Assembly (NCBI RefSeq): GCF_003334315.1
Contig: NZ_QOWR01000024.1
From: Escherichia coli
GTDB lineage: Bacteria > Pseudomonadota > Gammaproteobacteria > Enterobacterales > Enterobacteriaceae
Strand: one strand, 5' to 3'
Length of the DNA: 64,000 bases
Shown here: piece by piece, positions 1-61,138 of the stretch
Layout of the letters: every line of letters begins with the position of its first letter
Position numbering within the stretch: the first letter of the stretch is position 1
Program-made: the position numbers and the translations under genes
Notes under the pieces: model-generated
The model's input: only the letters and a program-made list of their open reading frames with translations
Databases searched by the model: none
What the model was told of the DNA's origin: nothing

Positions 1-258
1 TTATCGTGAGAGTAATTCATCGGCACGTTAAATCATATCAGGCGTAATACCACAACCCTTAAGTTAGCGCTTATGGGGTAAAACCCCGCGTACTGAATTG
101 TGATGGTTTGGTCTCCTGCACCCTTTTTTAATTTATATTGTTTATGTGAATATTATGCCTATGTTTATTATTCATATATATTACGGATGAAAATTATTTG
201 ATTATTCATAATGTAAATATTTTATTGAATGATATATATCACAGATAATTTTTAATAT
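1..258. promoter_or_regulatory. AT-rich region upstream of cas3, probable cas3 promoter and nucleoid-protein (H-NS-type) silencing target
   Basis: Bases 120-258 are very AT-rich (runs of tttatt/atatat) directly before the cas3 ATG at 259; AT-rich tracts are typical H-NS targets and cas promoters are known to be H-NS silenced in E. coli. Confidence 0.4.
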
Positions 259-2958
259 ATGCGTAAATATCCTTTAAGTTTACTGAAGGATAAAAATATT
301 GTGACTTTTTTTGATTTCTGGGGAAAAACCCGACGCGGCGAGAAAGACGGGGGCGACGACTATCACCTTCTTTGCTGGCATTCGCTGGATGTAGCCGCGA
401 TGGGCTATTTAATGGTTAAAAGAAATTGCTTCGGGCTGGCTGATTATTTTCGTCAATTAGGGATTTCTGACAAGGAACAGGCGGCTCAATTTTTCGCCTG
501 GTTGCTGTGCTGGCACGATATTGGAAAATTTGCCCGCTCTTTTCAACAACTTTACCTGCCCCCTGAACTCAAGATTCAGGAAGGTGCCAGAAAAAATTAC
601 GAAAAAATCTCTCATTCAACGCTGGGCTACTGGTTGTGGAATCATTATTTAAGTGAATGTCAGGAGTTACTTCCTTCATCTTCGCTCTCTCCGCGCAAAC
701 TTAGGCGAGTGATAGAAATGTGGATGCCCGTGACGACAGGGCATCATGGTCGGCCCCCTGATCGTATGGATGAATTGGATAATTTTCTGCCTGAAGACAA
801 AGCTGCAGCACGAGATTTTCTCCTTGAAATCAAACCACTGTTTCCGCTCATAGAGATCCCCGCATTCTGGGATGATGATGAGGGCATTGAACTTATAAAA
901 CACCTTTCCTGGTATATCTCTGCAACCGTCGTGCTCGCAGACTGGACGGGTTCGTCAACGCGATTTTTTCCACGCGTCGCACACCCAATGGATATTAAAG
1001 GTTACTGGCAGAAAACTTTAATTCAGGCTCAAAACGCCTTAACCGTCTTTCCTCTAAAAGCAAAAGTCGCGCCTTTCAACGGAATTAATACGCTGTTTCC
1101 TTTTATTGAGAATCCGACACCGTTACAGCAAAAGGTGCTGGATCTGGATATCAGCCAGCAAGGACCGCAGTTATTTATTCTGGAAGATGTGACTGGCGCA
1201 GGTAAAACAGAAGCGGCGCTTATCCTGGCGCACAGGTTGATAGCTGCGGGGAAAGCTCAGGGGCTGTTTTTTGGTCTGCCAACAATGGCAACGGCCAATG
1301 CCATGTACGATCGGCTGGTCAAAACCTGGCTTGCTTTCTATTCGCCAGAATCCCGCCCCAGCCTGGTGCTGGCACATAGTGCCCGCACATTAATGGACCG
1401 CTTTAATGAATCACTCTGGTCTGGTGATTTAGTCGGGTCAGAAGAACCGGATGAACAAACGTTCAGTCAGGGATGTGCGGCCTGGTTTGCCGACAGTAAC
1501 AAGAAGGCGTTGCTGGCTGAAATTGGCGTCGGCACGCTGGATCAGGCGATGATGGCGGTGATGCCGTTCAAACATAATAATCTGCGGCTTCTGGGGCTGA
1601 GTAACAAAATCCTGCTGGCTGATGAGATCCACGCCTGTGACGCTTACATGTCGTGCATTCTTGAAGGGTTGATCGAGCGGCAGGCGCGTGGCGGAAACAG
1701 CGTTATTTTGCTTTCTGCCACGTTATCTCAACAGCAGCGCGACAAACTCGTCGCTGCCTTTGCGCGGGGTACAGAGGGCCAGCAAGAAGCTCCGTTCCTG
1801 GAAAAGGATGATTACCCCTGGCTGACGCATGTCACGAAATCCGATGTGAACTCACACCGGGTAGCGACGCGCAAAGACGTTGAGCGTAGCGTCAGCGTGG
1901 GTTGGCTTCATAGTGAACAAGAGTGTATTGCGCGTATCGAATCGGCGGTAAGTCAGGGGAAATGCATCGCCTGGATCCGGAATTCTGTCGATGACGCTAT
2001 TAAGGTTCATCGTCAGCTGCTTGCCCGCGGCGTCATTCCTGCTTCCAGCCTTTCACTTTTTCATAGCCGCTTTGCTTTTAGCGATCGCCAGCGAATTGAA
2101 ACGGAAACGCTGGCACGCTTTGGTAAATATTGTAGTTTACAGAGAGCGTCGCAAGTCATTGTTTGTACACAAGTAATTGAGCAAAGCGTGGATATTGACC
2201 TGGACGAAATGATCTCCGACCTGGCCCCTGTTGATTTGCTGATTCAGCGAGCAGGACGATTACAGCGGCATATCCGCGATATTAATGGTCAGTTAAAGCG
2301 TGACGGAAAGGACGAGCGTTCCCCCCCTGAATTGCTGATTCTGGCTCCCGTCTGGGACGACTCTCCTGGCGACGAATGGTTTGGCAGTGCCATGCGTAAC
2401 AGTGCATTTGTCTATCCCGATCATGGGCGAATCTGGCTGACGCAGCGTGTGCTGCGTGAGCAAGGTGCTATTCAGATGCCACACGCAGCCCGGCTTCTTA
2501 TTGAATCCGTCTACGGTGAGGACGTGGTAATGCCGGAAGGATTTGCCCGCAGCGAGCAGGAGCAAGTGGGCAAATATTACTGTGATCGCGCAATGGCTAA
2601 AAAGTTTGTGCTGAACTTCAGGCCCGGCTATGCCGCCAATATCAACGATTACCTCCCGGAAAAACTGTCGACACGTCTGGCTGAGGAGTCTGTTTCCCTG
2701 TGGCTGGCTACCTGTATTGACGGTGTGGTGAAGCCTTATGCCACCGGTGCTCACGCATGGGAAATGAGCGTTGTCAGAGTGCGCCGAAGCTGGTGGAAAA
2801 AACATCGGGATGAGTTTTCTTTACTGGAGGGAGAGGCGTTCAGGCTGTGGTGCATTGAACAGCGACAAGATCCGGAGATGGCAAACGTGATTTTAGTCAA
2901 CGATGACGAAAGTTGCGGGTATTCGGCTACGGAAGGATTGATTGGCAAGGTTGGTTGA
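259..2958 (+). CDS. cas3: Cas3 HD-nuclease/SF2 helicase, type I-E (899 aa)
   Basis: N-terminal HD motifs (HLLCWHSLDVAAMG, CWHDIGKF), helicase Walker A (TGAGKTEAA) and DEIH box (LLADEIHACD); lies directly upstream of the Cascade genes. Confidence 0.93.
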   Translation: MRKYPLSLLKDKNIVTFFDFWGKTRRGEKDGGDDYHLLCWHSLDVAAMGYLMVKRNCFGLADYFRQLGISDKEQAAQFFAWLLCWHDIGKFARSFQQLYLPPELKIQEGARKNYEKISHSTLGYWLWNHYLSECQELLPSSSLSPRKLRRVIEMWMPVTTGHHGRPPDRMDELDNFLPEDKAAARDFLLEIKPLFPLIEIPAFWDDDEGIELIKHLSWYISATVVLADWTGSSTRFFPRVAHPMDIKGYWQKTLIQAQNALTVFPLKAKVAPFNGINTLFPFIENPTPLQQKVLDLDISQQGPQLFILEDVTGAGKTEAALILAHRLIAAGKAQGLFFGLPTMATANAMYDRLVKTWLAFYSPESRPSLVLAHSARTLMDRFNESLWSGDLVGSEEPDEQTFSQGCAAWFADSNKKALLAEIGVGTLDQAMMAVMPFKHNNLRLLGLSNKILLADEIHACDAYMSCILEGLIERQARGGNSVILLSATLSQQQRDKLVAAFARGTEGQQEAPFLEKDDYPWLTHVTKSDVNSHRVATRKDVERSVSVGWLHSEQECIARIESAVSQGKCIAWIRNSVDDAIKVHRQLLARGVIPASSLSLFHSRFAFSDRQRIETETLARFGKYCSLQRASQVIVCTQVIEQSVDIDLDEMISDLAPVDLLIQRAGRLQRHIRDINGQLKRDGKDERSPPELLILAPVWDDSPGDEWFGSAMRNSAFVYPDHGRIWLTQRVLREQGAIQMPHAARLLIESVYGEDVVMPEGFARSEQEQVGKYYCDRAMAKKFVLNFRPGYAANINDYLPEKLSTRLAEESVSLWLATCIDGVVKPYATGAHAWEMSVVRVRRSWWKKHRDEFSLLEGEAFRLWCIEQRQDPEMANVILVNDDESCGYSATEGLIGKVG

Positions 2959-3055
2959 GATGTCTGCGACAGGACTCTCTGAATAGTTGATACACCGAAA
3001 AGGATGGAAAGATGGACAACCGACCTGGGATGGTCTTTTTTACGAGAGGATGCGT

Positions 3056-4618
3056 ATGAACTCGTTTTCACTTCTGACAACCCCGTGGTTGCCCGTTCGT
3101 TTTAAAGACGGAACGACAGGCAAACTGGCGCCAGTCGATCTGGCGGATGAAAATGTTGTCGATATTTCTGCGCCGCGGGCAGATCTCCAGGGTGCGGTAT
3201 GGCAGTTTTTGCTGGGGCTACTACAAACCAGCTTCGCGCCAAAAGATCATCGTCGTTGGGATGATATCTGGGAAGACGGACTGGAAGCTGAAAAGCTACG
3301 GGAAGCATTGCAGTCATTAGAACATGCTTTCCAGTTTGGGCCAGATTCCCCTTCATTTATGCAGGATTTCGAGGCGCTCACCGGAGATAAAGTTCCGGTC
3401 GCTTCGCTACTGCCTGAGATTCCCGGCGCTCAAACAACGAAGTTTAATAAAGACCACTTTATCAAGCGTGGTGTAACGGAATACCTGTGCCCACATTGTT
3501 CTGCGTTAGCTCTGTTCTCCCTACAGTTGAATGCGCCGTCAGGTGGCAAAGGCTACCGCACCGGTTTACGCGGCGGTGGGCCGATGACCACTCTGATTGA
3601 ATTACAGGAATATCAGGGTAATCAACAAACTCCCTTGTGGCGCAAACTGTGGATCAATGTCATGCCGCAGGATGAAGCCGATTTACCGCTACCCAAAAAA
3701 TTTGACGATCTGGTTTTCCCCTGGCTTGGCCCGACGCGCACCAGCGAACTGGCCGGTGCGGTGGTAACCGATGAGCAGGTCAATAAACTCCAGGCGTACT
3801 GGGGAATGCCTCGCCGTATTCGTATTGATTTTAATACCACGACAGTCGGCAACTGCGATATTTGCGGTGAGCAGAGCGACGCGCTCCTGAGCCTGATGAC
3901 GACCAAAAATTACGGTGCGAATTATGCCATGTGGCAGCATCCCTTAACGCCTTACCGTGTACCACTTAAAGAGGGTGGCGAGTTTTACTCCGTTAAACCA
4001 CAACCGGGCGGTTTAATCTGGCGTGACTGGTTAGGCCTTATCGAAACGGGTAAATCAGAAAACAATACGGAACTTCCCGCGCTGGTGGTGAAACTCTTCA
4101 ATGCCAGCAGTCTCAAGCAGGCAAAAGTGGGCCTGTGGGGATTTGGCTATGATTTCGACAACATGAAAGCGCGCTGTTGGTACGAACACCATTTCCCGCT
4201 GCTGCTCGATAAAAAAGAAGGTCAGATACCGAAGCTGCGGCTGGCTGCGCAAACAGCTTCACGGATTCTAAGTCTGTTACGGAGTGCATTGAAAGAAGCA
4301 TGGTTCTCCGATCCAAAAGGTGCAAGGGGTGATTTTAGTTTTGTGGATATCGACTTCTGGAACAAAACTCAGCATCGCTTTCTGAGGTTAGTGCGCCAAA
4401 TTGAAGAAGGTCAGGATGCGGATGAATTACTCAGCAAATGGAATAAGGAAATTTGGTTATTCGCACGTCAGGATTTTGACGAGCGTGTATTCACCAATCC
4501 TTATGAGCCCGTTGATCTGGAACGCGTCATGACCGCGCGCAAGAAATATTTTACAACATCGGCGGAGAAGCAAAGTGCTAAAGCCGCCAGGGAGAAAAAG
4601 CAGGAGGCTGCTGAATGA
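3056..4618 (+). CDS. cse1: Cse1 (CasA) Cascade large subunit, about 520 aa
   Basis: First gene after cas3 in a I-E operon; start placed at MNSFSLLTTPWLPVRF by analogy with the CasA N-terminus (MNLLIDNWIPVRP) and a GAGG RBS at 3046-3049. The ORF track begins earlier at 2987, and an ATG at 3050 is an alternative. Confidence 0.8.
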   Translation: MNSFSLLTTPWLPVRFKDGTTGKLAPVDLADENVVDISAPRADLQGAVWQFLLGLLQTSFAPKDHRRWDDIWEDGLEAEKLREALQSLEHAFQFGPDSPSFMQDFEALTGDKVPVASLLPEIPGAQTTKFNKDHFIKRGVTEYLCPHCSALALFSLQLNAPSGGKGYRTGLRGGGPMTTLIELQEYQGNQQTPLWRKLWINVMPQDEADLPLPKKFDDLVFPWLGPTRTSELAGAVVTDEQVNKLQAYWGMPRRIRIDFNTTTVGNCDICGEQSDALLSLMTTKNYGANYAMWQHPLTPYRVPLKEGGEFYSVKPQPGGLIWRDWLGLIETGKSENNTELPALVVKLFNASSLKQAKVGLWGFGYDFDNMKARCWYEHHFPLLLDKKEGQIPKLRLAAQTASRILSLLRSALKEAWFSDPKGARGDFSFVDIDFWNKTQHRFLRLVRQIEEGQDADELLSKWNKEIWLFARQDFDERVFTNPYEPVDLERVMTARKKYFTTSAEKQSAKAAREKKQEAAE

Positions 4619-5151
4619 GTATTGTAAAAGAGGAGCACAAAGCCACGCTGCGCAAATGGCACGAGGAATTGCAGGAGAAACGTGGCGAACGTGCCAGTCT
4701 GCGGCGTAGTACGACGGTTAATGATGTTTGTCTGACGGATGGATTTCGCCTGTTTCTGAAGAACAGACAAATAAAGTGGCAGGATGAACCTGAGTGGCGT
4801 ATCACCGCACTGGCGCTGATAGCCGCAGTTAGCGCCAATGTTAAAGCTATTGATGAACGGCAGCCTTTTGCCGCGCAGCTGGCGGCGGTAATGTCAAAGG
4901 GGCGTTTTACTCGTCTGTCGGCAGTAAAAACACCGGATGAATTACTGCGCCAGTTACGCCGCGCAGTCAGATTATTAAACGGTTCCGTCAATCTTGACTC
5001 TCTGGCAGAGGGGGTCTTCCGTTGGTGCCAGGAGAGCGACGACCTGCTCAATCATCACCGCCGCCAGCAGCGGCCAACCGAATTTATCCGTATCCGCTGG
5101 GCGCTGGAATATTACCAGGCTGGCGACGCCGATAACGAACAAAATCAATAA
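4615..5151 (+). CDS. cse2: Cse2 (CasB) Cascade small subunit (178 aa)
   Basis: Small ORF in the Cse2 position; start overlaps the cse1 stop (ATGA-type coupling). Confidence 0.85.
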   Translation: MSIVKEEHKATLRKWHEELQEKRGERASLRRSTTVNDVCLTDGFRLFLKNRQIKWQDEPEWRITALALIAAVSANVKAIDERQPFAAQLAAVMSKGRFTRLSAVKTPDELLRQLRRAVRLLNGSVNLDSLAEGVFRWCQESDDLLNHHRRQQRPTEFIRIRWALEYYQAGDADNEQNQ

Positions 5152-7607: not shown

Positions 7608-8817
<1,210 letters not shown>

Positions 8818-8912
8818 GTTATCCGTTCTTTAAAAATAAGGAAATGTTTTAATTTAGTTGGTAGATTGTTGATGCGGAATAAATTTGTTTAAAACAGTTA
8901 TGTATGCTTAGT
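8818..8912 (+). promoter_or_regulatory. CRISPR leader (AT-rich), contains the array promoter and probable IHF-bending region
   Basis: About 95 bp of AT-rich sequence between the cas2 stop and the first repeat, the standard I-E leader position. Confidence 0.75.
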
Positions 8913-9429
8913 GTGTTCCCCGCGCCAGCGGGGATAAACCGGAGCGTAGAGATTCTCGAAACCGATCCGGACGGTGTTCCCCGCGCCAGCGGGGATAAAC
9001 CGAATAAATAATAATCCAGTAGCCCCATGTATTAGTGTTCCCCGCGCCAGCGGGTATAAACCGGTAATAAAAAATATTCTATTTCTGCTGAATCAGTGTT
9101 CCCCGCGCCAGCGGGGATAAACCGCTTGCGAGCAAAAGATCCAGGCCGAGAAAGACGTGTTCCCCGCGCCAGCGGGGATAAACCGCGATAACCGCGTCAG
9201 TATTGGACAGGATATCAGTGTTCCCCGCGCCAGCGGGGATAAACCGAATCTATTGTGAATTTGAAATGGTCCAGCACTGTGTTCCCCGCGCCAGCGGGGA
9301 TAAACCGGGTAAAAACACGGTCTGAACCGACATTCATGTGTGTTCCCCGCGTCAGCGGGGATAAACCGGGCGCACTGGATGCGATGATGGATATCACTTG
9401 GAGTTCCCCGCCCCTGCGGTAGAACTCCC
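8913..9429 (+). CRISPR. Type I-E CRISPR array: 9 repeats of 29 bp (last one degenerate) and 8 spacers of 32 bp
   Basis: Repeat GTGTTCCCCGCGCCAGCGGGGATAAACCG at 8913, 8974, 9035, 9096, 9157, 9218, 9279, 9340 with a strict 61-bp period; repeat 3 has GGGTATAAACC, repeat 8 has GCGTCAGC; terminal degenerate repeat GAGTTCCCCGCCCCTGCGGTAGAACTCCC at 9401-9429. Spacers at 8942-8973, 9003-9034, 9064-9095, 9125-9156, 9186-9217, 9247-9278, 9308-9339, 9369-9400. Confidence 0.97.
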
Positions 9430-25284: not shown

Positions 25285-25365
25285 CTGCTCTCCTTGTTAA
25301 TTTAAGTGATATTTTGTTTGATATTGTGAATATAAGCGCTGGAAGATAACGATATGGTGAGCTGA

Positions 25366-25402
25366 TTCACATAAATTAACATTGTGTGTTATTTTATGTG
25401 AA
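25366..25402. promoter_or_regulatory. Candidate operator (inverted repeat) in the ygbJ-ygbI divergent promoter region
   Basis: TTCACATAAA (25366-25375) and its reverse complement TTTATGTGAA (25393-25402), 17 bp apart, in the intergenic region between the DeoR-family regulator gene and the operon. Confidence 0.35.
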
Positions 25403-25479
25403 CTAAGCGTTAGTTGCGCCGCGCACGTTTCGCAGGCAAATAGCGTAGAATGTCAGCAGGACAAAGGAAGGAGCAAAAG

Positions 25480-54238: not shown

Positions 54239-54284
54239 AGCAACCTCAATTTATTCAGCGTGTTCTAAAAAGATGTCTTGCTAA

Positions 54285-54302
54285 TTGCAGATTGCGTGCC
54301 AG
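54285..54302 (-). promoter_or_regulatory. Sigma-54 promoter for norVW
   Basis: Reverse complement reads CTGGCAC-gcaat-CTGCA (GG-N10-GC), about 45-65 bp upstream of the norV start. Confidence 0.7.
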
Positions 54303-54356
54303 TTTTTTATCTGATTGTTTTTACTCTATAAATAAAATTATGCCCATTAATGAGTA

Positions 54357-54412
54357 GTCAAAATGACTATCAATCAAATGGTCGATATGACAATATCTAT
54401 AGTCAAATTGAC
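54357..54412. promoter_or_regulatory. Three NorR binding sites (GT-N7-AC inverted repeats)
   Basis: GTCAAAATGAC (54357-54367), GTCGATATGAC (54381-54391), GTCAAATTGAC (54402-54412), the classic triple NorR enhancer immediately upstream of norR. Confidence 0.85.
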
Positions 54413-54424
54413 AGTGAGGCAAAG

Positions 54425-55939
54425 ATGAGTTTTTCCGTTGATGTGCTGGCGAATATCGCCATCGAATTGCAGCGTGGGATTGGTCATCAGGATCGTTTTC
54501 AGCGCCTGATCACCACGCTACGTCAGGTGCTGGAGTGCGATGCGTCTGCGTTGCTACGTTACGATTCGCGGCAGTTTATTCCGCTTGCCATCGACGGTCT
54601 GGCAAAGGATGTACTCGGTAGACGCTTTGCGCTGGAAGGGCATCCACGGCTGGAAGCGATTGCCCGCGCCGGGGATGTGGTGCGCTTTCCCGCAGACAGC
54701 GAATTGCCCGATCCCTATGACGGTTTGATTCCTGGGCAGGAGAGTCTGAAGGTTCACGCCTGCGTTGGTCTGCCATTGTTTGCCGGGCAAAACCTGATCG
54801 GCGCACTGACGCTCGACGGGATGCAGCCCGATCAGTTCGATGTTTTCAGCGACGAAGAGCTACGGCTGATTGCTGCGCTGGCGGCGGGAGCGTTAAGCAA
54901 TGCGTTGCTGATTGAACAACTGGAAAGCCAGAATATGCTGCCAGGCGATGCCACGCCGTTTGAAGCGGTGAAACAGACGCAGATGATTGGCTTGTCCCCT
55001 GGCATGACGCAACTGAAAAAAGAGATTGAGATTGTGGCGGCGTCCGATCTCAACGTCCTGATCAGCGGTGAGACTGGAACCGGTAAGGAGCTAGTGGCGA
55101 AAGCGATTCATGAAGCCTCGCCACGGGCGGTGAATCCGCTGGTCTATCTCAACTGTGCTGCACTGCCGGAAAGTGTGGCGGAAAGTGAGTTGTTCGGGCA
55201 TGTGAAAGGAGCGTTTACTGGCGCTATCAGTAATCGCAGCGGGAAGTTTGAAATGGCGGATAACGGCACGCTGTTTCTGGATGAGATCGGCGAGTTGTCG
55301 TTGGCATTGCAGGCCAAGCTGCTGAGGGTGTTGCAGTATGGCGATATTCAGCGCGTTGGCGATGACCGTTGTTTGCGGGTCGATGTGCGCGTGCTGGCGG
55401 CGACTAACCGCGATTTACGCGAAGAGGTGCTGGCAGGGCGATTCCGCGCCGATTTGTTTCATCGCCTGAGCGTGTTTCCACTTTCGGTGCCGCCGCTGCG
55501 TGAGCGGGGCGATGATGTCATTCTGCTGGCGGGGTATTTCTGCGAGCAGTGTCGTTTGCGGCAGGGGCTCTCCCGCGTGGTATTAAGTGCCGGAGCGCGA
55601 AATTTACTGCAACACTACAGTTTTCCGGGAAACGTGCGCGAACTGGAACATGCTATTCATCGGGCGGTAGTTCTGGCGAGAGCCACCCGCAGCGGCGATG
55701 AAGTGATTCTTGAGGCGCAACATTTTGCTTTTCCTGAGGTGACGTTGCCGCCGCCAGAAGTGGCGGCGGTGCCCGTTGTTAAGCAAAACCTGCGTGAAGC
55801 GACAGAAGCGTTCCAGCGTGAAACTATTCGTCAGGCACTGGCACAAAATCATCACAACTGGGCTGCCTGCGCGCGGATGCTGGAAACCGACGTCGCCAAC
55901 CTGCATCGGCTGGCGAAACGTCTGGGATTGAAGGATTAA
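54425..55939 (+). CDS. norR: NO-responsive sigma-54 activator NorR (504 aa)
   Basis: GAF domain, AAA+ sigma-54 interaction domain ([14 protein letters not shown]) and HTH; start at [15 protein letters not shown] (the track ORF is extended across the enhancer). Confidence 0.95.
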
Positions 55940-59363: not shown

Positions 59364-60901
<1,538 letters not shown>

Positions 60902-61138
60902 TTATTGTTTTATTACCAAACGGCAACCTAATCTAATCAGATCGAAAGATTTAAAAGTGTTATTTTGATCGCAAAATGAAAGATAAATATTTTAATTTAA
61001 AAGTTTGAATGAAAGGATAGCGAGGAGAATGAGTTGAGTTATGTAAAGTCCGTATCGGGCAGTGACTACCGCTTCCTTGTGCGGGGCGTGATGCTTTACC
61101 ATACTTGCCCCTGGTTGAATCTGTTAAATGGACTCCTC

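Follow-up and report, generated by a model that had tools for sequence, protein, structure and literature searches.

What lies between cysH and cas3 in a natural Escherichia coli, and does it hold the Cas genes silent? The question is raised by the beginning of a 64,000-nucleotide stretch of E. coli DNA (hereafter the window), the first 258 positions of which precede the annotated start of cas3. A reading based on the letters and the open reading frames only (the sequence-only reading) had taken this whole segment for cas3 regulatory DNA, namely a strongly AT-rich, curved nucleation site for H-NS, derepressed by LeuO as in K-12, which keeps an intact Cas system transcriptionally silent and is preceded by a short hairpin. 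We found instead that positions 1–258 form a mosaic made up of three modules, each with a history of its own, i.e. the end of an insertion sequence (IS), the tail of the mRNA of hokX, a small toxin gene, and the probable control region of cas3. The boundaries between these modules and the identity of the IS are observed directly, and we consider the reading as a whole to be probable. The architecture cysH / hok-sok / IS186 / IG3 / IG4 / cas3 (E1) is already published (Almendros et al. 2014, PMC3903273), and our finding is therefore largely ordinary; what we add is modest, namely a correction of the cas3 start codon and a conserved CRP/FNR-like box.

Layout of the DNA upstream of cas3

The features of the region are the following, with positions numbered from the first letter of the window.

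1–74, minus strand: transposase-proximal (left) end of an IS186/IS421 (IS4-family) element, from identity to strain 602354 and K-12 IS186A
about 51–74: terminal inverted repeat caacccttaagttagcgcttat, the IS end
75–86, no strand: target-site duplication GGGGTAAAACCC, right half of a split GGGG-N6-CCCC target
75–131, plus strand: 3' tail of the mRNA of hokX (hok/sok type I toxin), from IS-free strains, strain S88 and the predicted fold
75–92, plus strand: remnant of the stem-loop after the hok stop codon, within the hokX tail
110–123, plus strand: fold-back (fbi) element ggtctcctgcaccc, from predicted pairing with the mRNA 5' end
124–129, plus strand: T-run, within the hokX tail
132–300, plus strand: AT-rich 5' region of the cas-E1 cassette, taken as putative cas3 promoter and 5' UTR; GC 17.8%, the lowest in the 64 kb
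228–243, no strand: candidate CRP/FNR-type box AATGATATATATCACA, 8/10 matches to TGTGA-N6-TCACA, centre 65.5 bp upstream of GTG 301
259–2958, plus strand: cas3 as annotated in RefSeq (899 aa); probably 301–2958 (885 aa)
286–303, plus strand: Shine–Dalgarno-like GAAGGA (286–291) and probable cas3 start GTG (301–303), from relatives and profile alignment

Over positions 1–400 the window is 100% identical to E. coli strain 602354, where cysJ, cysI and cysH are followed by a 50-aa Hok/Gef gene, an IS421 transposase gene on the opposite strand and cas3. In most other E. coli genomes the match begins at position 75, and positions 1–77/89 match IS186/IS421 copies everywhere. The next boundary is set by the cas-less strain S88, in which hokX and 75–131 are present and the sequence then diverges directly toward iap; the AT-rich tract of the window starts at 132, precisely at the limit of the homology with S88. 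Strains without cas lack the tract, as does K-12. In the latter, the homology with the hokX locus extends no further than the hok ATG; reading frame and tail of hokX have been lost there, sokX alone being retained, and the sequence upstream of cas3 is unrelated. The earlier interpretation is thus wrong for positions 1–131, which consist of an IS end and the hokX tail and are not cas regulatory DNA, and supported in part for 132–258.

The GC content is 17.1% over 119–258, 15.7% over 132–258 and 17.8% over 132–300, the value for the whole 64-kb window being 53%. Direct measurement places 132–258 at the extreme of the window: it has the lowest GC content, tied, among all 63,874 segments of 127 bp, and the only island with 25% GC or less in the 64 kb lies around it. 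About 140 bp nearly devoid of G and C had been announced immediately upstream of cas3. The AT-richness and the position hold; the wording is overstated, since 132–258 contains 20 G/C among 127 bases, and the length is about 170 bp (132–300) and not 140 once cas3 starts at GTG 301 (see below). Other, milder AT-rich islands are found at 25291–25408, 54241–54428 and 60866–61059 (100-bp GC of 23–27%).

The IS186 end and the hokX mRNA tail

The transposase start codon lies at 20–18 on the minus strand, with a reading direction away from cas3; the window therefore begins inside the IS. In 602354, the CDS annotated as "IS4-like element IS421 family transposase" ends at window position 20, and the peptide MNYSHD encoded by window positions 20–1 (minus strand) extends there to the annotated 370-aa IS421 transposase, of whose gene only the first 20 nt are inside the window. 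Window 1–89 matches K-12 IS186A, and the element of 602354 measures 1337–1339 bp from junction to junction. Its terminal inverted repeat of about 23 bp, CATAAGCGCTAACTTAAGGGTTG, the reverse complement of which is found at window 51–75, recurs without a mismatch at the ends of IS186A, B and C in K-12.

The empty site, present in B7A (a locus without the IS), reads GCGGGGGTAAAACCCCGC, whereas the filled site consists of GGGGGTAAAACCC, the IS running from ATAAGCGC to GCGCTTAT, and GGGGTAAAACCCCGC. The 12 bases at 75–86 are found again at the other IS junction (positions 4726–4737 of locus L001), so GGGGTAAAACCC is directly observed in a single copy in the empty site and in two copies, one per junction, in the filled one; with the IS ends set one base further out, the duplication reads GGGTAAAACC instead. 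A GGGG-N6-CCCC target with a 10-bp duplication was present at four of the four IS186 sites examined, i.e. K-12 IS186A, B and C and the present one. More specifically, the targets in K-12 are (i) GGCGGGGAGTGATCCCCGCC, about 20 nt after the hokC stop codon; (ii) GCGGGGAGTAATCCCCGC, about 20 nt after the hokE stop codon; and (iii) CCGGGGATAATTCCCCGG, the stem of the nupC terminator, with a 10-bp GG-N6-CC duplication at each of the three copies. There is no other GGGG-N6-CCCC within the 64-kb window. The target consensus that SaiSree et al. reportedly described for IS186 in 2001 agrees with GGGG-N6-CCCC.

A survey of 5,426 complete E. coli genomes gave 333 with the IS at hokX in the present orientation, 177 with the opposite orientation (e.g. 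O104:H4 and CH4790) and 3,416 with an empty site, meaning that about 13% of the hokX sites are occupied. A count of 1,929 genomes for the opposite orientation was discarded, being inflated by similar hokE/IS186 junctions, and the stricter query gave the 177 quoted above. The existence of both orientations, together with the presence of the IS on two different cas3-upstream alleles (the loci compared include CH4790, O104:H4 and EC0430), points to repeated insertion at hokX. The stem-loop that follows the stop codon of hok-family genes is a recurrent target of IS186, at hokX, hokC and hokE. Note that the transposase gene of the O104:H4 copy of IS421 at hokX is frameshifted.

These comparisons account for the short hairpin noted in the first 120 bp, the function of which could not be assigned from the letters. 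Its motif, GGGGTAAAACCCC, is present at 75–87, but the structure is weak as it stands in the window (–9 kcal/mol, z = –1.6, with 13 of 200 shuffles folding as well). The empty and filled sites identify it as the right-hand copy of the 10–12-bp target duplication of IS186, inside the hokX mRNA tail. In IS-free strains the hairpin is intact, ACGCGGGG-GUAAAA-CCCCGCGU, with a folding energy of –17.7 kcal/mol (z = –3.9, 0/200 shuffles).

As for hokX itself, the Hok stop codon of B7A lies 10 nt before the sequence of window position 75. The Rfam sok model matches the B7A region upstream with 113 bits (gathering threshold 59), and the 50-aa ORF found upstream, outside the window, matches HokA (E = 9e-16) and Hok (E = 1e-10), both matches being below the curated NCBIfam cut-offs; RefSeq annotates the product as "Hok/Gef family protein". 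A Rfam search of window 1–3200 gave no hits, the hok/sok model matching only upstream of the window. We assign the hokX system as hok/sok, with toxicity and control by Sok as predicted properties. In the predicted folds of the B7A hokX mRNA (minimum-energy and centroid, z = –3.8), nt 7–12 and 15–19 pair with the 3' sequence GGUCUCC..GCACCC, that is, the 5' GGGUGC..GAGGC pairs with window 110–123, and the same fold forms an 8-bp stem after the stop codon. A fold-back of the 3' end onto the 5' end is typical of hok mRNAs. Small ORFs in the AT-rich tract (33 aa at 100–201) were judged to be due to chance.

At this locus IS186 hit the conserved stem-loop after the hok stop codon, splitting the stem and duplicating 10–12 bp, and the IS now separates the hok reading frame from the 3' fold-back element (110–123) and the T-run. 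By analogy with hokC and hokE in K-12, the insertion is expected to disable or deregulate hokX; in the case of gef/hokC, IS186 is thought to disrupt the fbi sequence (PMC3562002).

Could either of these two modules nevertheless act on cas3? The hairpin might be a rho-independent terminator or some other regulatory structure directed at cas3, in keeping with its G+C-rich stem and with the fact that one other IS186 target is the nupC terminator hairpin. However, the stem of the intact allele is followed by GUACUGAAUU and not by a U-run, the hairpin is kept with hokX in strains without cas, and homologous stems follow hokC and hokE, all of which makes a role of this kind very improbable. Just as improbable is the idea that the IS end gives cas3 an outward or hybrid promoter, so that IS-bearing strains would express cas3 differently. 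The IS does lie 226 bp upstream of the start codon, at a site occupied in about 13% of cases, and any transcription running on from cysH or hokX would also be stopped by it; yet no outward –35/–10 pair was found in 51–100, the transposase promoter reads the other way and both IS orientations occur. Besides, the promoter effect for which IS186 is known is a disruption, that of the lon promoter (SaiSree 2001, as cited in PMC11251521).

The AT-rich tract and the start of cas3

The type I-E locus of the window is of the cas-E1 variant, and the E1-specific primer cas3E1-R (Almendros et al. 2014) matches window 340–359. All eight cas genes are full length, aligning end to end with the type I-E NCBIfam profiles, which bears out the earlier statement that they are intact. 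The CRISPR array (8912–9426) comprises nine repeats with a 61-bp spacing, the third with a G-to-T change and the last degenerate, and its leader (8767–8921) is AT-rich with a minimum GC of 24%. A contig of 6,981 bp assigned to an actinobacterial metagenome-assembled genome (MAG), Collinsella sp., contains a cas3 fragment 100% identical to that of E. coli at the amino acid level (query residues 351–400), probably as a result of binning contamination. According to PMC3903273, hok-sok is present in all strains except E2, IG3 occurs with or without cas and IG4 only with E1, IS186 is inserted at the GC-rich IG2–IG3 boundary, and conclusions drawn from K-12 may not apply to E1. Positions 132–300 apparently correspond to the IG4 of these authors.

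Where does the tract end? RefSeq places the start of cas3 at ATG 259, but the evidence strongly favours GTG 301 as the true start. Twelve loci with a related Cas3 were fetched from other species, 11 of which cover the gene start. A GTG, TTG or ATG start codon stands at the position of window 301 in nine of the 11, and in the other two, K. grimontii and Chimaeribacter, an ATG is no more than four codons away. The reading frames themselves are directly informative: ATG 259 is out of frame in two relatives, Pseudocitrobacter vendiensis (91% identity) and a second lineage labelled E. coli (89%), owing to a single additional base between it and the GTG, and several relatives have stop codons a few codons upstream of position 301. 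Furthermore, GAAGGA lies 9 nt before GTG 301 and ATG 259 is devoid of such an element, and, with translation from the GTG, the alignment to the K-12-type Cas3 NCBIfam profile begins at residue 2 of the protein. With a start at GTG 301 the non-coding AT-rich tract therefore runs to position 300, i.e. over 169 bp, and with GAAGGA as ribosome-binding site it would contain a promoter and a short leader.

The 169 bp are 82% AT, the extreme of the 64 kb, and rich in TpA steps (31 of 168 dinucleotides versus 4% window-wide) more than in phased A-tracts. An alignment of six E. coli alleles divides them into a variable part (135–228), with many substitutions and 2–3-nt indels, and an almost invariant one (229–300), which is also nearly invariant in Pseudocitrobacter and more so than the adjacent coding sequence. 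In P. vendiensis, a member of another genus, cas3 is 91% identical and the proximal 100 bp or so of upstream sequence are nearly identical, a similarity which suggests that the cas-E1 module, including its control region, was recently shared horizontally.

Regulation of cas3 and comparison with known systems

The candidate box at 228–243 fits the FNR consensus TTGAT-N4-ATCAA about as well as the CRP consensus (8/10), and the match alone is no better than chance, with 17 such matches in the window versus 25 expected. What singles it out is its position. Five of ten lineages, namely E. coli, Phytobacter, K. grimontii, S. diarizonae and one Citrobacter genome, have a box with at most two mismatches between –64.5 and –69.5 relative to the start codon, in flanking upstream sequences that cannot be aligned, and none of 5000 dinucleotide-preserving shuffles placed more than two lineages in one 6-bp bin, a figure obtained with a motif chosen after inspection of the sequences and with lineages that share ancestry. 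C. youngae, K. indica and the second E. coli-labelled lineage lack the box or have it at another distance, and the spacing of the box to any candidate –10 element gives no clear fit to class I or class II activation. Upstream of cas3 on the plus strand, a strict sigma-70 promoter/terminator scan found no promoter, and a relaxed scan yielded overlapping weak candidates, the best with 8/12 matches. If the conserved box is functional, a regulator of the CRP/FNR family would read the tract through it, in addition to H-NS.

The case for H-NS rests on composition: because 132–300 is 82% AT, we lean, without strong conviction, towards the view that H-NS binds the tract and dampens its activity. The only match to the H-NS consensus TCGATAAATT in the tract has two mismatches and is uninformative, and a literature search for H-NS ChIP data in a cas-E1 strain found none. 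Silencing in the strict sense is plausible, considering the AT extreme and the silencing of cas3 by H-NS reported for S. Typhi (Medina-Aparicio 2017, as cited in PMC8039139), but it is no more than plausible, since the K-12 data on H-NS and LeuO concern a non-homologous spacer, that between cas3 and casA. As for the curvature ascribed to the region, it was not recovered: a wedge model, admittedly simple, puts the tract at the 30th–85th percentile of 120-bp segments, with end-to-end/contour ratios of 0.964–0.987. The most curved 120-bp segments in this model lie at 521–660 (within the 5' part of cas3) and around 14341, 36751 and 48421, away from the AT-rich tract.

In K-12, H-NS and LeuO act on Pcas, located in the cas3–casA spacer, and on the CRISPR leader, and the factors controlling cas3 "have not been identified" (PMC4782391). 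The effect of hns on cas3 itself depends on the study and the growth phase: the transcript is up 8-fold in a Δhns strain at stationary phase (PMC4782391) and unchanged at mid-log phase (Westra 2010, as cited in PMC4782391), a cas3 reporter is only "slightly increased" in Δhns and is active and CRP-dependent in the wild type (PMC7019758), and all cas genes are about 5-fold up in Δhns in one study (PMC5394155). Now, the window matches K-12 only via IS186, with no homology to the region upstream of K-12 cas3 or to the cas3–casA spacer. The K-12 paradigm, which was derived from Pcas in the 414-bp cas3–casA spacer and from the leader, should thus not be transferred to this region as the sequence-only reading had done. 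Its statement that the system is silent although all genes are intact holds in part: the eight genes are full length, but "silent" is too strong, because even in K-12 the loss of hns brings no increase in cas3 at mid-log phase and the cas3 reporter is active and CRP-dependent in wild-type cells.

The distribution of AT-rich DNA differs as well. The AT-rich islands of the K-12 locus are the 414-bp cas3–casA spacer (29.5% GC, minimum 18%) and the leader, the region upstream of cas3 having 34% GC; in the window they consist, besides the leader, of the tract preceding cas3 (minimum 14%), the cas3–cse1 spacer (2959–3055) being 97 bp long with 47% GC. S. diarizonae, a Salmonella relative, has the E1-like layout, with AT-rich DNA upstream of cas3 and no AT-rich cas3–cse1 spacer. 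As the AT island lies upstream of cas3 here and between cas3 and casA in K-12, the tract may, by analogy and without shared descent, play the role of the H-NS-bound K-12 spacer for cas3 and possibly for the downstream genes. In the cas-E1 variant, a common transcript might cover cas3 and the Cascade genes; in S. Typhi, a separate cse1 promoter has been described (PMC8039139). The cas3–cse1 spacer of the window contains a weak GACC/GGTC stem and a T6 run at about 3022–3041.

Two other views of the segment have to be set against the reading of the third module as a cas3 control region. One is that all of 1–258 works as cas3 regulatory DNA in the K-12 manner, with a curved H-NS nucleation site, relief by LeuO, a silent Cas system and a regulatory hairpin upstream. 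Although the extreme AT content, the intact cas genes and the effects of H-NS on cas3 in stationary-phase K-12 and in S. Typhi (PMC4782391 and PMC8039139) go in this direction, 1–131 is an IS and a hokX tail, the LeuO/H-NS region of K-12 is a different, non-homologous spacer, no curvature is predicted, and K-12 cas3 has basal CRP-dependent activity with little effect of hns at mid-log phase (PMC7019758 and PMC4782391); we consider this view unlikely. The other view, to which we give just as little credence, holds the tract to be a mere scar at the junction of an exchanged cas-E1 module, i.e. foreign or unconstrained DNA without a regulatory role, cas3 being transcribed from a weak constitutive promoter. 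It would explain why the tract begins exactly at the module boundary, why 135–228 differs among alleles by many substitutions and 2–3-nt indels, and why no strong promoter consensus is seen. It does not sit well with the near invariance of 229–300, which includes Pseudocitrobacter and exceeds that of the adjacent coding sequence, with the positionally conserved box of distant relatives, and with the AT-rich upstream DNA of most, though not all, relatives.

Returning to the mosaic with a genuine cas3 control region, a broader proposal can be made tentatively, as a possibility that we judge to be on the improbable side. In cas-E1 and in its relatives from Salmonella, Citrobacter, Klebsiella and Phytobacter, cas3 would be translated from the start at GTG 301 and controlled by a single AT-rich tract that combines damping by H-NS with a CRP/FNR box about 65 bp before the start codon, immunity being wired to nutrition or oxygen, unlike in K-12, and recurrent IS186 insertion altering the upstream context. 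If true, this would tie immunity to the nutritional or oxygen state of the cell, in a departure from the K-12 model, and IS186 in the hokX stem-loop of about 13% of strains would change the transcriptional context upstream. Most natural E. coli with a type I-E system carry cas-E1, whereas regulatory knowledge comes nearly all from the cas-E2 system of K-12. The H-NS/LeuO region of K-12 has no homologous counterpart here, where AT-rich, control-like DNA precedes cas3 instead, which calls for caution in carrying the "silent unless LeuO" model over to wild strains. The hairpin, for its part, neatly illustrates how one structural element of hok-family mRNAs is struck by IS186 again and again. Altogether, these results bring no major change to current understanding.

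With respect to known systems, the insertion resembles those of IS186 at hokC and hokE in K-12 in the element itself, the position about 20 nt after the stop codon, the GGGG-N6-CCCC stem-loop and the 10-bp duplication, and at hokC the orientation of the IS relative to hok is also the same; hokX is however a different paralogue, and both IS orientations are found there in the population. The locus of Almendros et al. (2014) shows the same gene order, i.e. cysH, hok-sok, IS186 at a GC-rich boundary, IG3, IG4 and cas3 (E1), and the distributions of IG3 and IG4 given there are those of 75–131 (with and without cas) and of the DNA from 132 onward, respectively. The passages of that paper covered here do not assign the GC-rich site to a hok stem-loop and do not deal with the cas3 start codon or with motifs inside IG4.

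The Pcas region of K-12 cas-E2 (Pul 2010, Westra 2010) and the present tract are both AT-rich islands inside a type I-E locus, but the former lies between cas3 and casA and the latter upstream of cas3, with no sequence homology; a CRP site overlapping the LeuO site has also been reported at the K-12 cse1 promoter. The cas3 promoter of K-12 (Yang et al. 2020, PMC7019758), which is activated by cAMP-CRP, likewise has a CRP-type element within the 40–75 bp that precede the start codon: the footprint in K-12 extends from –66 to –38 and the box predicted here from –73 to –58, in unrelated sequences, the K-12 site being a poor match to the consensus shown experimentally and ours a better match that is predicted. 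Finally, the Cas3 of Salmonella belongs to a related lineage (67% identity to S. diarizonae), and the layout there is the same, AT-rich DNA preceding cas3 and the cas3–cse1 junction being of normal GC content. The upstream sequences of the two cannot be aligned outside the box, which S. diarizonae carries, in a CRP-like form, at –64.5.
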